NCBI GenBank assembly: GCA_030684405.1
Contig: JAUXYA010000029.1
Location: 19,147 to 83,146 of the forward strand
Source of the DNA: Burkholderiales bacterium
GTDB lineage: Bacteria > Pseudomonadota > Gammaproteobacteria > Burkholderiales > SG8-41
Reading direction: 5' to 3'
DNA: 64,000 nucleotides
The position numbers and the translations under genes are program-made. A model generated the notes under the pieces. That model was not told the origin of the DNA. It ran no database searches and saw only the letters and a list, made by a program, of their open reading frames with translations. Positions 5,374-53,489 of this stretch are shown piece by piece (positions within the stretch are counted from its first letter, which is position 1; every line of letters begins with the position of its first letter).

Positions 5374-6369
5374 ATGAACGTCCTGCTGTCCTCTCGCCGC
5401 CTGTTTATGGCGGTTTTTGCCGCCATGATTTCGGGTTTTCTCCCGGTCCAGGCTGCTGAAGATCCCGCGAAATACCCGTCCAAACCGATCCGCTTCATCG
5501 TTCCGTTCCCGCCCGGTGGCGGCAACGACACCATCGCGCGGCTCGTCGGCCAGCAGATGGCCGCGAGCCTCGGCCAGCAGGTACCGATCGACAACCGGCC
5601 GGGCGCCGCGGGTGCGCTCGGCGCCCAGCTTGCAGCGAACTCACCCGCAGACGGCTACACCATATTTCTGGCGGGCGTGGGCAGCCACGGCCTGAATCCG
5701 AACCTGGCCAAGAAGCCACTGTACGATCCGGTCAAGGATTTCGACGCGATCAGCCTGATTGCCTCGGCGCCGTTGCTGGTCGTGGTGCATCCGTCGCTGC
5801 CGGTAAAATCGGTAAAGGAACTCATTGCTCTGGCGAAAGCAAAGCCCGGTGTCATCAATTACGCCTCCAATGGCACTGGCGGTTCATCGCACATGGCCAT
5901 CGAGTTGTTCGACATGATGGCCGGCACCCGGATGACGCATATTCCCTACAAGGGTCTCGCGCCGGCCTTGACCGAGTTGATGGCCGGGGAAGTCCAGGTC
6001 ATGTTTTCGAGCGCAGTGGCCATGCTGCCGCAGATCAAGGCAGGGCGCCTGCGCGCGATCGCAATGACCGGCAACACGCGTTCGCCGGCGATCCCGGACA
6101 TTCCGACCGTGGCGGAAGCCGGGCTCAAGGGCTACGAAACCGGCTCCTGGTACGGTGTCGTCGCGCCCGCCGGCACGCCGAAGTACGCGATCGACAGGCT
6201 GAGCGCGGAGGTCATCCGCATCACCAAGTCACCGCAGGTTAACGACAGGCTAGTCAGCGAGGCCGTGATTCCGGTTGGCAGTACGCCGTCCGAGTTTTCG
6301 GCTTACATCAAGTCCGAGATTGCGCGTTGGGGCAAGGTAATCAAGCAGGCGAAAATCCAGCCGACATGA
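5374..6369 (+). CDS. Bug-family (TctC-like) tripartite tricarboxylate transporter substrate-binding protein
   Basis: Signal peptide followed by YPSKPIRFIVPFPPGGGNDTIARL...DNRPGAAG...ADGYT; about 330 aa. Confidence 0.9.
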   Translation: MNVLLSSRRLFMAVFAAMISGFLPVQAAEDPAKYPSKPIRFIVPFPPGGGNDTIARLVGQQMAASLGQQVPIDNRPGAAGALGAQLAANSPADGYTIFLAGVGSHGLNPNLAKKPLYDPVKDFDAISLIASAPLLVVVHPSLPVKSVKELIALAKAKPGVINYASNGTGGSSHMAIELFDMMAGTRMTHIPYKGLAPALTELMAGEVQVMFSSAVAMLPQIKAGRLRAIAMTGNTRSPAIPDIPTVAEAGLKGYETGSWYGVVAPAGTPKYAIDRLSAEVIRITKSPQVNDRLVSEAVIPVGSTPSEFSAYIKSEIARWGKVIKQAKIQPT

Positions 6370-7804: not shown

Positions 7805-7956
7805 TCGTGTGCCAACCGGGCTGCTAAAATGTCGACTCAGGGTCGATCGCAGGCAACTATTGAGTTTTTCCAAAAACATGACAGCCTCGTCAGAGGCATG
7901 TTTTTTGTCATTATTTATGCAACTCTCGATAAGCGGGCAGGAGGCCGGAAGGTGGC

Positions 7957-8472: not shown

Positions 8473-9093
8473 CTATTTCTTCAGCGGCAGCAAGGGCAGC
8501 GGAGTGCCCGGCGGCACCGGAGTGCGGTCGACATTGAGGCACATCGATACCAGCACATAGAAACCGTTGACCGATATCAGGTCGACCACGCCGCGCTCGC
8601 CGAAACGGGCCACCGCCCGTGCGTACATCTCGTCGCTGATGCCCTGGGTTTCCTGCAATTCCCGGGAAAATTCGTAGACCAGGGCTTCATCCGCATCCAT
8701 TCCCTCCGGCTTCCGGCCTTCGGCGATAGCTTCAGCGATCTCGGGATTGAGCCCGCCTTCGAGCGCCAGCTTGTGGTGGGCAAGCCATTCGTACTGTGAA
8801 GTCCAGTTGCGCGCGGTGACGAGGATCGCCAGCTCATTGAGCTTGCCGGAAAGCGAACTGCGGAAACGGATTTCCTCGCCCAGTTGCTGCACCAGATTGC
8901 CGATACCCGGGCTGCGCAGCCAGACATTGAACGGCCCGCCCAGCGGTCCGGGCTTGGACGCGCCCGAGCTCGCAAGTTTGGCGCGAGGCCCCGACTTGAT
9001 GGCGTCGCTCAGTGCCTTCTGCTCGGGCGTGAGGTTTTCCAGCGGAATCAGTTTGAAACGGCGGCTGTCGGCGATGTTGTTGGTATCACTCAT
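8473..9093 (-). CDS. carboxymuconolactone decarboxylase (CMD) family protein
   Basis: The pattern ...ELAILVTARNWTSQYEWLAHHKLALEGGL...VDLISVNGFYVLVSM is typical of CMD-fold proteins. Confidence 0.75.
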   Translation of the reverse strand: MSDTNNIADSRRFKLIPLENLTPEQKALSDAIKSGPRAKLASSGASKPGPLGGPFNVWLRSPGIGNLVQQLGEEIRFRSSLSGKLNELAILVTARNWTSQYEWLAHHKLALEGGLNPEIAEAIAEGRKPEGMDADEALVYEFSRELQETQGISDEMYARAVARFGERGVVDLISVNGFYVLVSMCLNVDRTPVPPGTPLPLLPLKK

Positions 9094-20199: not shown

Positions 20200-20775
20200 T
20201 CAGAATCCGAAGCGTCCTCCGGCGCCGAGCAGCGTCGCGATGCCGAGCAGCGCGAAGATCGCCGCTGCGATGCTGTGCACCGCCGCCACCGGCATCCGGT
20301 GTGCGATGCGGTCGCCGAGCAGCACCGCGGGCACGTTGGCGATCATCATCCCCAGCGTGGTGCCGATCACCACCGCAGTGAAAGCCTGGTAATGCGCAGC
20401 AAGCGCCACGGTCGCGATCTGGGTCTTGTCGCCCATTTCCGCGATGAAGAATGCGATGAGCGTGGTGCCGAACGCGCCGAGCCTGACGAAGCGCGCAGCT
20501 TCCGCGTCGAGTTTGTCGGGGATCAGTATCCAGACGGCCATCGCGAGGAACGACAGGCCGAGGAACCAGCGCAAAGCTTCCGGCCCGACTTGCAGCGTGA
20601 TCCAGTTGCCGACCGCCCCCGCCAGTGCATGATTGGCCAGGGTGGCCGCGAGAATGCCAGCGATGATTGGCCACGGTTTGCGGAACTTCGCGGCGAGCAA
20701 AAAGGACAGCAGCTGGGTCTTGTCACCGATTTCGGCAAGGGCGACGATGCCGGTGGAAATGAGGAAGGCGTCCAA
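20200..20775 (-). CDS. GDT1/TMEM165 (UPF0016) family cation (Mn2+/Ca2+) transporter
   Basis: Two E-x-G-D-K-T motifs (AEIGDKTQ, AEMGDKTQ) in a 6-TM protein. The apparent start is TTG. Confidence 0.85.
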   Translation of the reverse strand: MDAFLISTGIVALAEIGDKTQLLSFLLAAKFRKPWPIIAGILAATLANHALAGAVGNWITLQVGPEALRWFLGLSFLAMAVWILIPDKLDAEAARFVRLGAFGTTLIAFFIAEMGDKTQIATVALAAHYQAFTAVVIGTTLGMMIANVPAVLLGDRIAHRMPVAAVHSIAAAIFALLGIATLLGAGGRFGF

Positions 20776-20842
20776 ACGCTTGCTCCTGGGCCGGGAGTAG
20801 ACAGATGACCACGCTGCTCCCCGGCCACTGCGGAGGCAACAT

Positions 20843-20945
20843 GGTCAAAGGTCTTGCCAGGTCAGGAAACCGCCTGCGCCATGGCCGGATGGCCAAGCAT
20901 GTTGACGCAGACACCTCTCAGGAGGGCGGCTACTCCCCGATGACG
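20843..20945 (-). promoter_or_regulatory. yybP-ykoY-type Mn2+ riboswitch candidate in the GDT1 leader
   Basis: The minus-strand RNA contains, in order, GGGGAGUAGCC, GUCAACAUGC and GGCAAGACCUUUGAC. These match the three conserved blocks as I recall them from the L. lactis yoaB and E. coli mntP leaders. Supporting helices are GUCA/UGAC, CUGC/GCAG and a GC hairpin. Confidence 0.65.
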
Positions 20946-20997
20946 GCGCGATTCTACCTGCGCGCCGGAGATGGGTCCATGTGCGTGGAGCCGACGA

Positions 20998-28274: not shown

Positions 28275-28871
28275 TCAGTCGCTCCGGTGCTTGCCCGGCG
28301 ACCAGCCGTGCTGCGCAATATGCTTTTGCGCCTTTTCGACCGCATGGTCCTCCAGTGGCGTAGCCATGGTGTCGTTCCAGCGGTTCATGAAGCCGAAATA
28401 GGAGATCAGCGCCGTGATCTCGACAATCTGGCCTTCATTCCAGTGCTGTTTCATCCGCTCGAAGAGTTCGTCGCTGACATCGTTGGGCTGTGAAGCCGCG
28501 GCAATCGCAAACTCCAGTGCCACTCGCTCGGCCTCGCTGAACAGGGGGCTGCTGCGAAATTCCCAGACCTTCTCCAGTTTATCCGCAGGTATACCTTGCT
28601 GGAGAGACCCCCCAGCGTTGTGCGCCATTCAGTAATGGCAGCCGTGGGTGCGCGCGACTACGTAGGCCAGCAGGCGCTTGAAGGCGATGCTGACTTCGCC
28701 ATCGGCATCGAACACCGCATTGGACAGCGCGCGCAGCGCCGTCACCAGCTTCGGCCGGCGCTGCATGATCAACTGGCTATTGGGCACATAGTGGTTGGCT
28801 GCGAGCGTCTTCTCGAACATTTCCTTCAGTTCGGGTGCCGCGCCGATGGGCAGGGGTTTCAGTCGGGCCAT
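28275..28871 (-). CDS. AhpD/CMD-family protein with in-frame TGA at the second position of the CxxC motif (candidate selenoprotein, 198 codons)
   Basis: Track ORFs 28629..28871 and 28275..28628 are contiguous and in the same frame, separated only by the TGA at 28629-28631. The junction reads THG-C-H-Y-[TGA]-M-A-H. Confidence 0.65.
28598..28616 (-). promoter_or_regulatory. SECIS-like hairpin 12 nt downstream of the in-frame UGA
   Basis: GCUGGGG-GGUCU-CUCCAGC: a 7-bp stem including one G-U pair, with a GGUC-containing loop. Confidence 0.4.
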
Positions 28872-28895
28872 GAAAGTTCCTTTTCAGTTGAGCAG

Positions 28896-28936
28896 GCAAA
28901 AAAATCCCCGGTCCGCGGAAGGTTCCGCGGACCGGG
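28896..28936 (-). terminator. strong rho-independent terminator after the Bug gene
   Basis: A perfect 15-nt inverted repeat ccccggtccgcggaa/ttccgcggaccgggg, followed on the minus strand by a U7 tract. Confidence 0.75.
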
Positions 28937-28945
28937 GCGCTATGC

Positions 28946-29941
28946 TTATTGGCGGATGCCCAGCGAGGTCGCCAGTCCGTAATAAAGCTCGTATTGTTCC
29001 TTGACGAAGGCAAAACTTTCTTCCGGTGAGCGGATCGCCGCCACGCCGCCGATACGCGCATTGCCGGCCTGCCAGTCAGGGTCCTTCGCCAGTTGCTGGA
29101 AGGTCTTGACCCAGGCGGCCACTACCGGTTTCGGCATTCCAGCCGGGCCCATCAGCGCGGTCCAGCCGACCAGTTTTTCCATCTCCGGGAAACCGGCCTC
29201 GCGCGCCCCCGGCACACCCGGCGCCTCGGCGATCCGGTCCGGCGACGCCATCACACCGCGCAGGCGTCCCGATTTGATGTGCGGCACCAGCGTGGTCGCA
29301 TTGTTGCAGGCGAAATCGACCTGGCCACCCATGACCGCCGTGGTCACCTCGCCACCACCCTTGTAATGGATGCCGACGGCGTGGTCCTTGGTCAGCTTGG
29401 CCAGTGTCATCCAGTACTGCGGCGCCATGTTCTGCACCGTCCCCGGGCCAGCCGTCGAGAAGTTGAGTTTGCCCGGCTGTTTGCGGATCGCCTCCATCAG
29501 GTCCTGCGCGTTGCGGTAGGGCGACTCTGCGCGCACGAAACAGATCGAAGGATTGAGCTCGATCAGCGACAGCATCGTGAACTCGTTCCACTTGTAATTA
29601 AGCTTCGAATCGATCGCCGGCAGGATCGCATGCGTGGCAATCCGCGCGACCAGCAGCGTGTAACCGTCGGGCTGGGCGGCCTTGACATAGCTGGTGCCGA
29701 TCGCGCCGGAGGCGCCGACGCGGTTCACCGGGATGATGTTGGTTTTCCCGCCGAGGTATTTGGTGGCCACCAGTCCGACATTACGGCCCGAGAGATCCGA
29801 ATCGCCACCGGCGGCGAAGGGAATCACGAACTGGATCGGCTTGCTCGGATACGGTGCAGCGGATTGCGCCTGGGCACCCTGGGAAAGAAGCAGGATTGCT
29901 GCTGAACACACTGGAAGTGCGACTGTTGCATAGCGATGCAT
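28946..29941 (-). CDS. Bug-family (TctC-like) substrate-binding protein
   Basis: Signal peptide followed by YPSKPIQFVIPFAAGGDSDLSGR...; 331 aa. Confidence 0.9.
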   Translation of the reverse strand: MHRYATVALPVCSAAILLLSQGAQAQSAAPYPSKPIQFVIPFAAGGDSDLSGRNVGLVATKYLGGKTNIIPVNRVGASGAIGTSYVKAAQPDGYTLLVARIATHAILPAIDSKLNYKWNEFTMLSLIELNPSICFVRAESPYRNAQDLMEAIRKQPGKLNFSTAGPGTVQNMAPQYWMTLAKLTKDHAVGIHYKGGGEVTTAVMGGQVDFACNNATTLVPHIKSGRLRGVMASPDRIAEAPGVPGAREAGFPEMEKLVGWTALMGPAGMPKPVVAAWVKTFQQLAKDPDWQAGNARIGGVAAIRSPEESFAFVKEQYELYYGLATSLGIRQ

Positions 29942-48976: not shown

Positions 48977-50212
48977 TCAGTCTGTTGCGTGGTGCAGCAT
49001 GGCATGGGGTACCAGATTCATTTCTCCGATCCGCCGCAGCGCTGGATCGTCCATCGCTTTCAGCAGCCTGCGCAGCTCGATATGAAGGCGCCCGGCCGCC
49101 GTATCCCCGAAAAACCAGTTATCCACGGCGATGCCGGTAGCACGCCCCGGCCGGGCGAGTGCGGCCTGGTAGTAATAATGTTTAAGATCATCAGCACACA
49201 GCTTGATCGCACGCGCCATCGGCTCTCCCGTCACGAAAGACGGGATACCCTGATTGTGCAGATACGAGAAAAGGTGATCGGCAATCTGCCTGGGAGACAA
49301 AGTGGTCAGACCATCCAGCCGCCTGCCCTTCTGCCGCCGCACCGATTCCTCGTACCACGGTTGCAGCAGAACAATCTCCTGATGCAGGCGCTGCCGGAAT
49401 GCTTCCGGGCTGTCGGGTGCAACTTTCGGGCCGCTGAAGTTTACCGGGCACACCCAGCCTTGCTGGTCGTCTGGCGTGTCCGTTGCGACATCGGGTGCTG
49501 ACTCCGGAAAGTCTTCGATCAGAGGGCCATCGCAACGTTCCAGCAGGCGCAGCGCGGCTGTCAGTACCCGCCGCTGAAAATCCGGCGAGTCGGGTGCGCC
49601 GAAGGGGCGACCAAACTGGAAAGGCACGTGCAGCGCACGCGGCGGCTTCATCTGCGTGATGTGCTCGCGGACCAGACTCACCACGACGGTCGGTATGCCC
49701 TGGCGCTCGATGAAATGTGCAAGCCCGCTCACGGCGCGCGTGCACTGCGGTCAGACCCCGGCAAGGACGACACCGTTTACCTTGTCCTCCAGCAACAGTC
49801 CGGCGATGTCGAGTGCCACGGCCTGATGCGCATCAGGTGGCGTGGCCCCCATGAATGCGTAGTGGTAACCCGCAATGCTGTCTATGAAGCCATCGACGGC
49901 AAGGTCCCGCAGACGATCAATGGGAAACACCACATTGAGATCTTGCTGAAATCCCGTCCGGTCGAAGTTGCTCGAGATGTGGCTCATGATCAGCTCATCC
50001 GCCCCGGTATCGGCTGGAATGATGCGATATTCGCCAACGCCCAGTGCAAACGGCTGGTCAGTGCGCCTGTGCAATCCGGAGGTCGTGATGATGGCGATAC
50101 GCCGTTGCGCCAGCGGTGGGCCCGTGCGGCATTCCGTGGATCCGTAAGCAGGCAGTTCCTGGCTCAGGATGCGGTCGCGGGCAGCTTGCCCCATGTCGTG
50201 CAGGTACACCAT
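48977..50212 (-). CDS. PrdB/GrdB (reductase selenoprotein B) family protein with in-frame TGA (candidate selenoprotein, 411 codons)
   Basis: Track ORFs 49751..50212 and 48977..49732 are in the same frame. The TGA at 49751-49753 is the only interruption. The junction reads VVLAGV-[TGA]-PQCTRAVSGLAHFIERQGIPTVVV. An AGGAGGA RBS lies upstream of the ATG at 50212. Confidence 0.65.
49717..49745 (-). promoter_or_regulatory. SECIS-like bulged hairpin starting 6 nt after the in-frame UGA
   Basis: GUGCA...UGCAC outer stem. The inner stem GC-(G bulge)-CCG pairs with CGGGC, with a UGAG loop. Confidence 0.35.
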
Positions 50213-51518: not shown

Positions 51519-53489
51519 TCAGTTGAGGGGCCAGGGCATTTCGACAACGGATTGCAACAGGCCAGTCGGGTATTGCAGCACGAACAAATGCCCGAATAGA
51601 CTCATGACCACGATTGCGGCCAGTGCGCTGGCGATGGCCCGGGACCAGCGCACGCCGGCTTTCACCCTCAAAAAAGCCGCGATGTAGATAAATACGCCGA
51701 GGATGAAACCGAGCAGGCCGATCGCCGCCAGCAGTGCCAGTATCCAGCCCTGGAAATGCAGATCGCCATGGACAGGCCGGTTGTCGCCGCCCCAGTCGCG
51801 CTCGCTGTCGAAGAACACGTAGTCGGGCCGCTTGCGGCTGAACAGCGCCACGGCAGCGATCAGCAGCGTCAGGGTGATCAGTGTCACCGCGACCGGAAAT
51901 ACCTTGCCCAGAAACTGGAGATTCCAGGTGTCGTAGATAGCGTACAGGCAGATCGCGATCAGCATCCCCAGAAACACGGCCTGCGGCGCCTTGTGGATCG
52001 GGGCATGCGGCCCTGTTGCCGTGAGCGGGTCGCGCTGCACCTTCATGCGCAGTGCGAGGTAGACGGAGACGGCAATCAGCGCCAGGATCAGCAGCACGCC
52101 ACCGCGCTGGAGGAAAGAAGCGCCGTAGACCTGGATTGACTGGTAGACGGAGGCATCCAGGCGCATCGACAGCACGAAGCCGATCAGGAAGGCCGGCCGC
52201 GACCAGCCGAAGCGTTTCATGTACATCCCGAAAATGCCGAGCACGAACAGGGCGATCAGATCATCCCAGTCACGCGTGGCCTGAAACGCCGCGAAGTAGA
52301 CGATGACGATCATGAAGGGTGCCACCAGCAGGAAAGGCACCAGCGTTATGCGCGAAATCGGCCGCGCCAGCACCAGGCAGATTCCTGCACCGATGACATT
52401 GGCGATGGCCAGCGACCAGATAATGATAAAAGTCAGGTCGAGATGGCGCTCCATCATGCCGATTCCCGGCTCCACGCCGATCAGGATGAGTGCGCCAAGA
52501 AACAGCGCCATGCTGCCGGACCCGGGGATGCCGAACATCAGCGTGGGGATCAGGGCGCCGCCGTTGTCCGCATTGTTGGATGCTTCCGGACCGATCACTC
52601 CGCGGATGTCGCCCTTGCCGAACTGCGAGCGGTCTTTCGCGGACTGCATGGCGTGGGCGTAGGCCACCCAGTTGGTGACCGCGCCGCCGAGGCCCGGCAG
52701 TGCGCCGATGAACACACCGAGCGCGGAACAACGCAGCACCAACCACTTGTGCTTGAGCGTTTCGCGGAATCCCTGGAACGTGCCGGCGCCGAGTTCGGGG
52801 ATGGACGAAATGCTCGTCCGCTTGCGCATGACTTCCACGATCTCGGGGATCGCGAACATGGCGAGGCCGACGATCACCAGCGGCAGGCCGTCGCTGAGGT
52901 AAAGCGTGTCGAAGGTCAGGCGCTCTTCCGCGGTGGCCGGTGCCGCGCCGATGCTGCCGAACAAGAGGCCCATGCCGCACATGATCAGGCCCTTGATCGC
53001 GCTGGTTCCCGTCAGCATGCCGACCATCGTCAGCGCGAGCACGACCAGCATCAGCTGCTCGCCGAATCCCACGGCCAGTATCAGCGGCCGCGCGAACTGG
53101 ATGGCCAGGGTCAGCATCAGCGCGCCGAACAGCCCGCCGAGCAGCGAAGCGGAGAAGGCGGCGCCCAGCGCGCGGGCGGCCTCGCCTTTGCGCGCGAGCG
53201 GGTGACCGTCCATGATGGTCGCCTGGGCGCTCGAGGTGCCCGGGATGCCTATCAGCACGGCGGGGAAGGTATCCGAGGTGTTGGTGACGGCAAGCAGGCC
53301 GATCATCATCGGCAGCACCAGCGTCGGATCGCCGCCGTAGACGAAGGGCAGCAGCAGTGACAGCGCGGCGATGCCGCCGAGGCCCGGCAATATGCCGACC
53401 ACCAGGCCGAGCAGCACCCCGCCCAAAAGAAAGAGCAGGTGCTGCACGCTGATCAGCGTGGACAGCGCCTGCAGGAGGTCAGCTTGCAT
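51519..53489 (-). CDS. tctA: tripartite tricarboxylate transporter permease TctA with a C-terminal TctB-like four-helix extension (fusion)
   Basis: The first ~495 aa are TctA-like (ILPGLGG..., GALPGLGG..., IPGSGS). A further ~160 aa carry four hydrophobic helices where a separate TctB gene would normally be. Confidence 0.85.
   Translation of the reverse strand: MQADLLQALSTLISVQHLLFLLGGVLLGLVVGILPGLGGIAALSLLLPFVYGGDPTLVLPMMIGLLAVTNTSDTFPAVLIGIPGTSSAQATIMDGHPLARKGEAARALGAAFSASLLGGLFGALMLTLAIQFARPLILAVGFGEQLMLVVLALTMVGMLTGTSAIKGLIMCGMGLLFGSIGAAPATAEERLTFDTLYLSDGLPLVIVGLAMFAIPEIVEVMRKRTSISSIPELGAGTFQGFRETLKHKWLVLRCSALGVFIGALPGLGGAVTNWVAYAHAMQSAKDRSQFGKGDIRGVIGPEASNNADNGGALIPTLMFGIPGSGSMALFLGALILIGVEPGIGMMERHLDLTFIIIWSLAIANVIGAGICLVLARPISRITLVPFLLVAPFMIVIVYFAAFQATRDWDDLIALFVLGIFGMYMKRFGWSRPAFLIGFVLSMRLDASVYQSIQVYGASFLQRGGVLLILALIAVSVYLALRMKVQRDPLTATGPHAPIHKAPQAVFLGMLIAICLYAIYDTWNLQFLGKVFPVAVTLITLTLLIAAVALFSRKRPDYVFFDSERDWGGDNRPVHGDLHFQGWILALLAAIGLLGFILGVFIYIAAFLRVKAGVRWSRAIASALAAIVVMSLFGHLFVLQYPTGLLQSVVEMPWPLN

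Follow-up and report, generated by a model that had tools for sequence, protein, structure and literature searches.

Selenoproteins of the AhpD-like type, in which selenocysteine (Sec) takes the second position of a CxxC redox pair on an all-helical AhpD or carboxymuconolactone decarboxylase (CMD) fold, were described by Zhang, Fomenko and Gladyshev in 2005 among Sargasso Sea sequences, where 27 AhpD-like (COG2128) and 4 CMD-domain (PF02627) CxxU proteins were found and their Cys homologs were termed 'widespread' (PMC1088965). The Global Ocean Sampling survey of 2008 placed them among the most abundant selenoprotein families, with 299 'AhpD-like 1' and 70 'AhpD-like 2' sequences, the latter being commoner in non-marine samples (PMC2398784). 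They are also found in BSepDB, and a review of 2026 assigns them to TIGR01926, PF02627, NF041047 and NF041238 (PMC13188914). For Betaproteobacteria, a survey of 2006 gave FdhA as the only selenoprotein family (PMC1794560). Here we describe an AhpD/CMD-like gene with an in-frame TGA at the second position of the redox pair, located at 28275..28871 on the minus strand of a 64,000-nucleotide stretch of contig JAUXYA010000029.1 (the window) from a Burkholderiales bacterium. Comparison with its relatives leads us to conclude, with a probability of roughly 90%, that this is a single functional gene in which the TGA is decoded as Sec, and thus a genuine selenoprotein gene. Its putative product is most likely a 198-residue AhpD/CMD-fold thiol-selenol oxidoreductase.

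A first-pass annotation of the window, made from its letters alone, had drawn attention to two contiguous, in-frame open reading frames on the minus strand, 28629..28871 (80 amino acids) and 28275..28628 (117 amino acids), whose sole separator is the TGA at 28629-28631. This arrangement was reproduced here, as was the sequence across the junction, YVVARTHG-C-H-Y-[TGA]-M-A-H-NAGGSLQQ (Table 1). The proposed membership of the joined product in the CMD/AhpD family is borne out by a match to the Pfam CMD model PF02627, which spans residues 40-122 and exceeds the gathering score (35 bits, cut-off 23). Third codon positions are rich in GC to either side of the TGA (0.81 and 0.74), like those of other genes in this window of 61.5% GC. 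The predicted protein resembles the known AhpD-like CxxU family in its all-helical AhpD/CMD fold, in the placement of Sec at the second Cys of CxxC, in having, just 3' of the UGA, a bacterial Sec insertion sequence (SECIS) whose small apical loop contains G, and in its many Cys homologs. It differs in lineage and habitat, the known members being marine or belonging to Deltaproteobacteria and Clostridia, whereas the clade of the window gene is made up of metagenome-assembled genomes (MAGs) of freshwater, groundwater and soil Burkholderiales, and in its characteristic C-H-Y-U-M-A-H motif.

The first-pass annotation had also named a family signature in which the stop codon would fall on the second Cys, and had asked for an alignment at this position. 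Among 5.8 billion proteins searched, 1,709 relatives were detected, and we examined the best 120, which are full-length and 55-75% identical to the joined translation. The signature is real: G/E-C-x-Y-C-x-A-H is present in 120/120 of these homologs. The column occupied by the TGA holds Cys in every one of the 120 and in 51 of 52 unique loci without TGA, the fifty-second carrying Ser. No full-length protein more than 75% identical to the joined query was found among the 5.8 billion proteins searched; the close relatives, split by gene calling into two fragments, are for that reason absent from protein databases. At the DNA level, a scan of species-representative genomes detected 24 loci with 63-93% amino-acid identity, nearly all from species-level MAGs of Burkholderiales or Betaproteobacteria, and the TGA stands at the column in 24 of the 24. 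Scanning of metagenomes added 80 loci, with TGA in 28, Cys in 51 and Ser in 1, and neither TAA nor TAG was seen at the column in any of the 24 genome or 80 metagenome loci. The locus with Ser (L088 461-1048) uses an AGC codon at the second redox position and reads G-C-N-Y-S-M-A-H.

The same species was assembled from four independent samples, each time with the split gene and its TGA intact; the four contigs agree at 99.0-99.4% of nucleotides within the gene and at 99.2-99.7% along their full length. An assembly or sequencing error was ruled out, because the TGA is common to these four independent samples and to 24 species. Reassignment of TGA in the genetic code was likewise ruled out: 36 of the 63 predicted genes in the window end normally in TGA, the remaining 27 in TAA or TAG, and the code is therefore the standard one. 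The residues between the redox pair also follow the identity of the second position. C-H-Y-U occurs in 41 of 48 unique Sec-form sequences (alignment A3; C-H-Y is encoded at window positions 28632..28640 on the minus strand). The Cys forms read C-Q/V/R-Y-C, with C-H-Y-C in 0/52 loci and in 1/120 database proteins. The His of the Sec forms may tune the selenol, as an active-site substitution linked to Sec, or may reflect mere shared ancestry.

Twelve nucleotides past the TGA lies the hairpin that the first-pass annotation had likened to a SECIS, and it is the predicted minimum-free-energy feature of the region. When 48 unique Sec-form sequences were compared with 52 Cys-form sequences, the hairpin proved to be conserved, and to covary, only in the TGA forms. 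All seven base pairs are present in 45 of the 48 Sec forms, whereas the stem is complete in none of the 52 Cys forms, which reach five pairs at most. Across the Sec forms 97.9% of alignment cells are paired, as against 30-64% when the 3' partner is slid by 1-3 columns, and in 500 shuffles neither the pairing nor the covariation score of the real alignment was attained. At one pair, U-A (18 sequences) and C-G (27) replace each other, so that a silent change in an Ala codon goes together with a Gln/Arg exchange; in addition, there are two G-C to U-G changes, and the closing pair is seen as G-C, G-U and U-G. In PMC1088965 the bacterial SECIS is characterized as a stem-loop just 3' of the UGA whose apical loop is small and contains G, and this is what was found: the loop holds G in all Sec forms, as GGUCN (35/48), CGGCG, CGUCG, GGGCG or GUUCG. 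TGA and hairpin recur together in 51 related loci. The SECIS of E. coli fdhF, a hairpin 11-12 nt past the UGA with a GGUC apical loop and a G-U dinucleotide ~20-22 nt past the UGA, offers a likeness read by eye rather than computed; unlike that of fdhF, the window stem is a plain 7-bp helix with neither a bulged U nor a long lower stem. The Cys form nearest to the Sec clade (protein P0004, 73% identity; loci L031 277-870 and L032 158-751) retains the SECIS 5' arm and loop (GCCGGAGGGUCG / GCCGGAGGGTCG) next to a decayed 3' arm (CTGAAGT), and thus looks like a recent reversion from Sec to Cys that was followed by loss of the SECIS.

Whether anything is translated past the TGA had been named in the first-pass annotation as decisive between a selenoprotein and a decayed gene. 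In all 23 genome orthologs analyzed, the frame comprises 197-203 codons, contains exactly one internal TGA and ends at the conserved stop position; no frameshift or second internal stop was found in any of the 23. The ratio of nonsynonymous to synonymous substitution rates (dN/dS, Nei-Gojobori) amounts to 0.21 for the part ahead of the TGA and 0.12 for the part behind it, with dS about 1 overall and about 1.1 behind the TGA, and in the 15 codons that bear the hairpin dS is lower (0.69 vs 1.15). The purifying selection across species on the post-TGA frame counts toward Sec, and shows that the gene is in all probability expressed. The possibility that the ortholog set arose by contamination from one sequence was excluded by the synonymous divergence. 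These data bear directly on the idea that a nonsense mutation from TGC or TGT to TGA killed the second active-site Cys and that the gene is now decaying. Such a mutation would need one substitution, Cys is found in all of the nearest full-length database entries (up to 75% identity), P56A and S73A in the window protein are changes at two otherwise highly conserved residues, and Sec machinery was not found in the window or the related loci. However, a TGA retained by 51 loci as divergent as dS about 1 and 63-93% amino-acid identity, together with a covarying hairpin and an intact downstream frame free of frameshifts and further stops, is not the pattern of a decaying gene. Because dN/dS of 0.12 means that the part after the TGA is translated and constrained, we consider a pseudogene to be excluded for practical purposes.

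Purifying selection on both halves is compatible with a split gene as well, in which translation would stop at the UGA and re-initiate at UGAAUG, so that chains of 80 and 117 residues would form an enzyme with Cys78 only and without Sec. An ATG does follow the TGA directly, and the two products are just what gene callers and databases list. The Met after the second Cys is, however, also conserved in Cys forms (114/120), so that the ATG next to the TGA does not count as an adaptation to a split; nor is this internal ATG preceded by a Shine-Dalgarno sequence. Moreover, the stop is always TGA, though TAA and TAG together end 27/63 window genes, a split enzyme would lack a residue found invariantly across the family, and the TGA forms have a hairpin specific to them, with a G-containing loop at the canonical SECIS distance. 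On this evidence a split gene appears very improbable. Read-through or misincorporation independent of a SECIS, by a near-cognate tRNA for Trp or Cys, or insertion of Cys by way of the Sec pathway, would leave Cys or Trp in the mature protein, and bacterial Sec systems can indeed insert Cys when selenium is scarce. Trp is unsuited to a redox CxxC site, though, and the conserved, covarying hairpin and the exclusive alternation of Cys and Sec constitute the signature of SelB-dependent decoding, which makes misincorporation highly unlikely. Sec decoding at a CxxU center with a downstream SECIS hairpin, as first suggested from the window itself, is supported by the Cys column, the Sec-specific covarying hairpin and the selected downstream frame. 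Taken together, the comparative evidence strongly supports the reading of this TGA as Sec.

A second TGA at a redox motif had been noted about 21 kb away, and it likewise falls at a conserved Cys/Sec position. It belongs to a PrdB/GrdB-like gene (48977..50212, minus strand), in which the TGA at 49751-49753 lies within the motif GV-U-P-Q-C-TR (UxxC), and which matches PrdB/GrdB models across the TGA (TIGR04483 with 108 bits, cut-off 300, and also Pfam GRDB). Among its 120 best homologs, 116 are fragments that start just past the TGA, and the four longer ones carry Cys in PV-C-P-x-C-TR. A hairpin with a GUGAG loop stands at the equivalent distance, 19-23 nt past the UGA. When in-frame TGAs flanked by coding signal on either side were sought throughout the window, 11 sites emerged, of which only the AhpD-like and PrdB-like ones have coding context; the nine others were judged to be antisense frames or gene junctions. 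That conserved Cys/Sec positions occur twice, independently, in one genome leaves Sec decoding as the only economical reading. The PrdB-like gene would thereby give indirect support to a Sec decoding capacity, and we infer that selABCD is encoded in the genome.

Several observations nevertheless weigh against a selenoprotein. No tRNA-Sec, selA, selB or selD was found in the 64-kb window and ~680 kb of related loci, when ARAGORN was run for tRNA-Sec on the window and all loci and E. coli SelA, SelB and SelD were compared with the same sequences by tblastn. Pfam annotation of ~50 window genes revealed no SelA, SelB or SelD, and an exact-protein look-up of ~4 kb past one window end encountered no sel genes. 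The joined protein also scores below the curated cut-off of every selenoprotein-aware NCBIfam model: 86.7 bits against a cut-off of 310 for its best NCBIfam match, NF053654 (YciW-related (seleno)protein), 58.6 against 81.8 for TIGR01926 ('peroxidase-related enzyme'), and 19.8 against 175 for NF041238 (AhpD-related CFYUT (seleno)protein). It is therefore related to these NCBIfam families and lies outside every curated model. Taken by itself, the hairpin region is mildly more stable than shuffled sequences (z = -1.8). The AhpD-like gene also has a strong terminator that ends ~25 nt 5' of its ATG, and the stretch from the TctC gene to this ATG showed no sigma-70-like promoter.

Table 1. Coordinates of the AhpD/CMD-like gene, its proposed decoding elements and the adjoining terminator in the window
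Feature	Position	Strand	Description
Complete AhpD/CMD-like selenoprotein gene (putative)	28275..28871	-	198 sense codons and stop; ATG 28869-28871, terminal TGA 28275-28277
In-frame TGA, inferred Sec codon (U81)	28629..28631	-	Second position of C78-H-Y-U81; aligns to an invariant Cys
TGC codon of Cys78, first residue of the CxxU pair	28638..28640	-	Invariant across all homologs
CAC codon of His84 in C-x-x-U-x-x-H	28620..28622	-	Invariant across homologs
SECIS-like hairpin	28598..28616	-	7-bp stem GCUGGGG/CUCCAGC, apical loop GGUCU; starts 12 nt past the UGA
Shine-Dalgarno-like AAGGA	28878..28882	-	6 nt 5' of the ATG; read from the sequence
Intrinsic terminator of the upstream TctC/Bug gene	28896..28937	-	14-bp stem with 12 G-C pairs, T7; not part of the selenoprotein gene

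To place the redox pair in a fold, a structure model of the 75%-identical Cys homolog P0001 stands in for the window protein. The model (pLDDT, the predicted local distance difference test, 94.3) has the all-alpha AhpD fold, and in it residues 78 and 81 are predicted to flank the start of helix 79-91. A Foldseek search with this model gave Bmp8 with template modeling (TM) scores of 0.82-0.87, and 'peroxidase-related' AhpD-core proteins and the AhpD proteins of S. pneumoniae and D. radiodurans with 0.75-0.85; sequence search ranks the structures in the same order, Bmp8 first. Bmp8, a tetrabromopyrrole debrominase (PDB 6ohi, 6ohj), is thus the closest solved structure (E = 2.8e-23, residues 5-174) and has the same G-C-x-Y-C-x-x-H motif, but it carries Cys at both positions and is only 28-29% identical; no bmp-type halopyrrole genes were found near the AhpD-like gene. 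The AhpD proteins of S. pneumoniae (6e8l), D. radiodurans (6k40) and M. tuberculosis share the fold and a CxxC followed by His, but their sequence similarity is weak (E = 2e-4 to 1e-3). Coupling to AhpC finds no counterpart in gene order, as there is no ahpC linkage in the window and the context varies between species. The motif of M. tuberculosis AhpD is spaced CxxCxxxH, as opposed to CxxUxxH in the window protein.

We propose that the UGA would be recoded as Sec during translation, with the hairpin acting as a bacterial SECIS that would bring SelB-GTP-Sec-tRNA(Sec) to the UGA-paused ribosome. To judge by the model of the Cys homolog, the redox center C78-x-x-U81-x-x-H84 would lie at the N-terminal end of a helix. 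Its nucleophile would be the U81 selenol, attacking an oxidized or electrophilic substrate: peroxides, protein disulfides or sulfenates are candidates, and possibly organohalides, by analogy with Bmp8. The attack would leave an intermediate for Cys78 to resolve by forming a selenenyl-sulfide, a bond that would be reduced again by a thiol system of the cell. In M. tuberculosis AhpD the second Cys is the nucleophile, which would match the placement of Sec. Sec insertion itself, the assignment of U81 as attacking and C78 as resolving residue, and the classes of substrate are proposals. A bolder reading is that the protein would be a Sec version of a Bmp8-like reductive dehalogenase, used by freshwater and groundwater Burkholderiales against organohalides, and not a peroxidase; put more modestly, aerobic Burkholderiales would have a larger, rapidly switching selenoproteome. 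We regard this reading as unlikely, and a dehalogenase activity of the gene product is speculation. If it were true, a bacterial AhpD fold would have converged on the Sec chemistry of the iodothyronine deiodinases.

The strong terminator between the AhpD-like gene and its upstream neighbor, to which the first-pass annotation had called attention as a caveat, is real. It follows the TctC/Bug gene at 28946..29941, and the four closest species (L005-L008) retain it with an altered stem. In the source lineage, transcription of the AhpD-like gene must come from read-through of this terminator or from a start further upstream. Most relatives have unrelated DNA upstream of the gene, yet an AAGGA or GAGGA Shine-Dalgarno element occurs at the same place. 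Five loci that lack the TctC terminator upstream (L009-L012 and L015) share a TTCTGT(T/A)(A/G)TAT(G/A)CT-like element ~50-60 nt 5' of the ATG, which may be a promoter or an operator. The neighbors of the AhpD-like gene in the window are TctC, LOG-family, methyltransferase-like and PRC-barrel genes; the order TctC, AhpD-like gene, LOG is shared by the four closest species alone, the gene having different neighbors in the others. Because the neighbors vary and no ahpC or peroxiredoxin gene adjoins it, the AhpD-like gene appears to act on its own.

In one related locus (L022), a tRNA-Cys(GCA) gene (7866..7938) ends 33 nt 5' of the selenoprotein ortholog, which is probably a coincidence. The window contains nine TctC/Bug receptor genes (starting at 5374, 15208, 17622, 28946, 38993, 45257, 47953, 55322 and 56478) and one TctA gene (51519..53489), a TctC expansion typical of Burkholderiales. 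Its sole Rfam match is a manganese (yybP-ykoY) riboswitch at 20782..20950 on the minus strand (88 bits), in an ordinary arrangement directly 5' of a GDT1-family cation transporter gene (20200..20775, minus strand). A CMD-like paralog at 8473..9093 (minus strand) scores 20.5 bits with Pfam, below the cut-off, has no CxxC and was set aside as unrelated to the Sec gene.

The gene is an unannotated member, together with its sub-clade, of the known AhpD-like CxxU selenoproteins, whose family and mechanism are established. Database records of the clade consist of an 80-residue 'hypothetical protein' and a 116- or 117-residue CMD-family or 'alkylhydroperoxidase family' protein, and cluster look-ups of 28275..28628 and 28629..28871 found no full-length selenoprotein record. 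These split records, and the absence of any NCBIfam model that reaches its cut-off, are the reason why dozens of MAG species are without a selenoprotein call. Since such selenoproteins have been known since 2005, the result mainly corrects annotation, and the understanding of Sec decoding itself is unchanged by it. What is somewhat new is the lineage and the habitat, and the interleaving of Sec and Cys forms within the AhpD-like family is also of note. A neighbor-joining tree implies at least 8 switches between Sec and Cys, a rough count to be taken with caution because the tree is distance-built and midpoint-rooted. As a natural experiment in Sec/Cys switching the family is a clean one: Sec forms have the SECIS, while Cys forms lack it or show it in decay. 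It could help to train predictors of SECIS elements and selenoproteins. Together with the PrdB-like gene, it suggests that the use of selenium in freshwater, groundwater and soil Burkholderiales extends beyond formate dehydrogenase.

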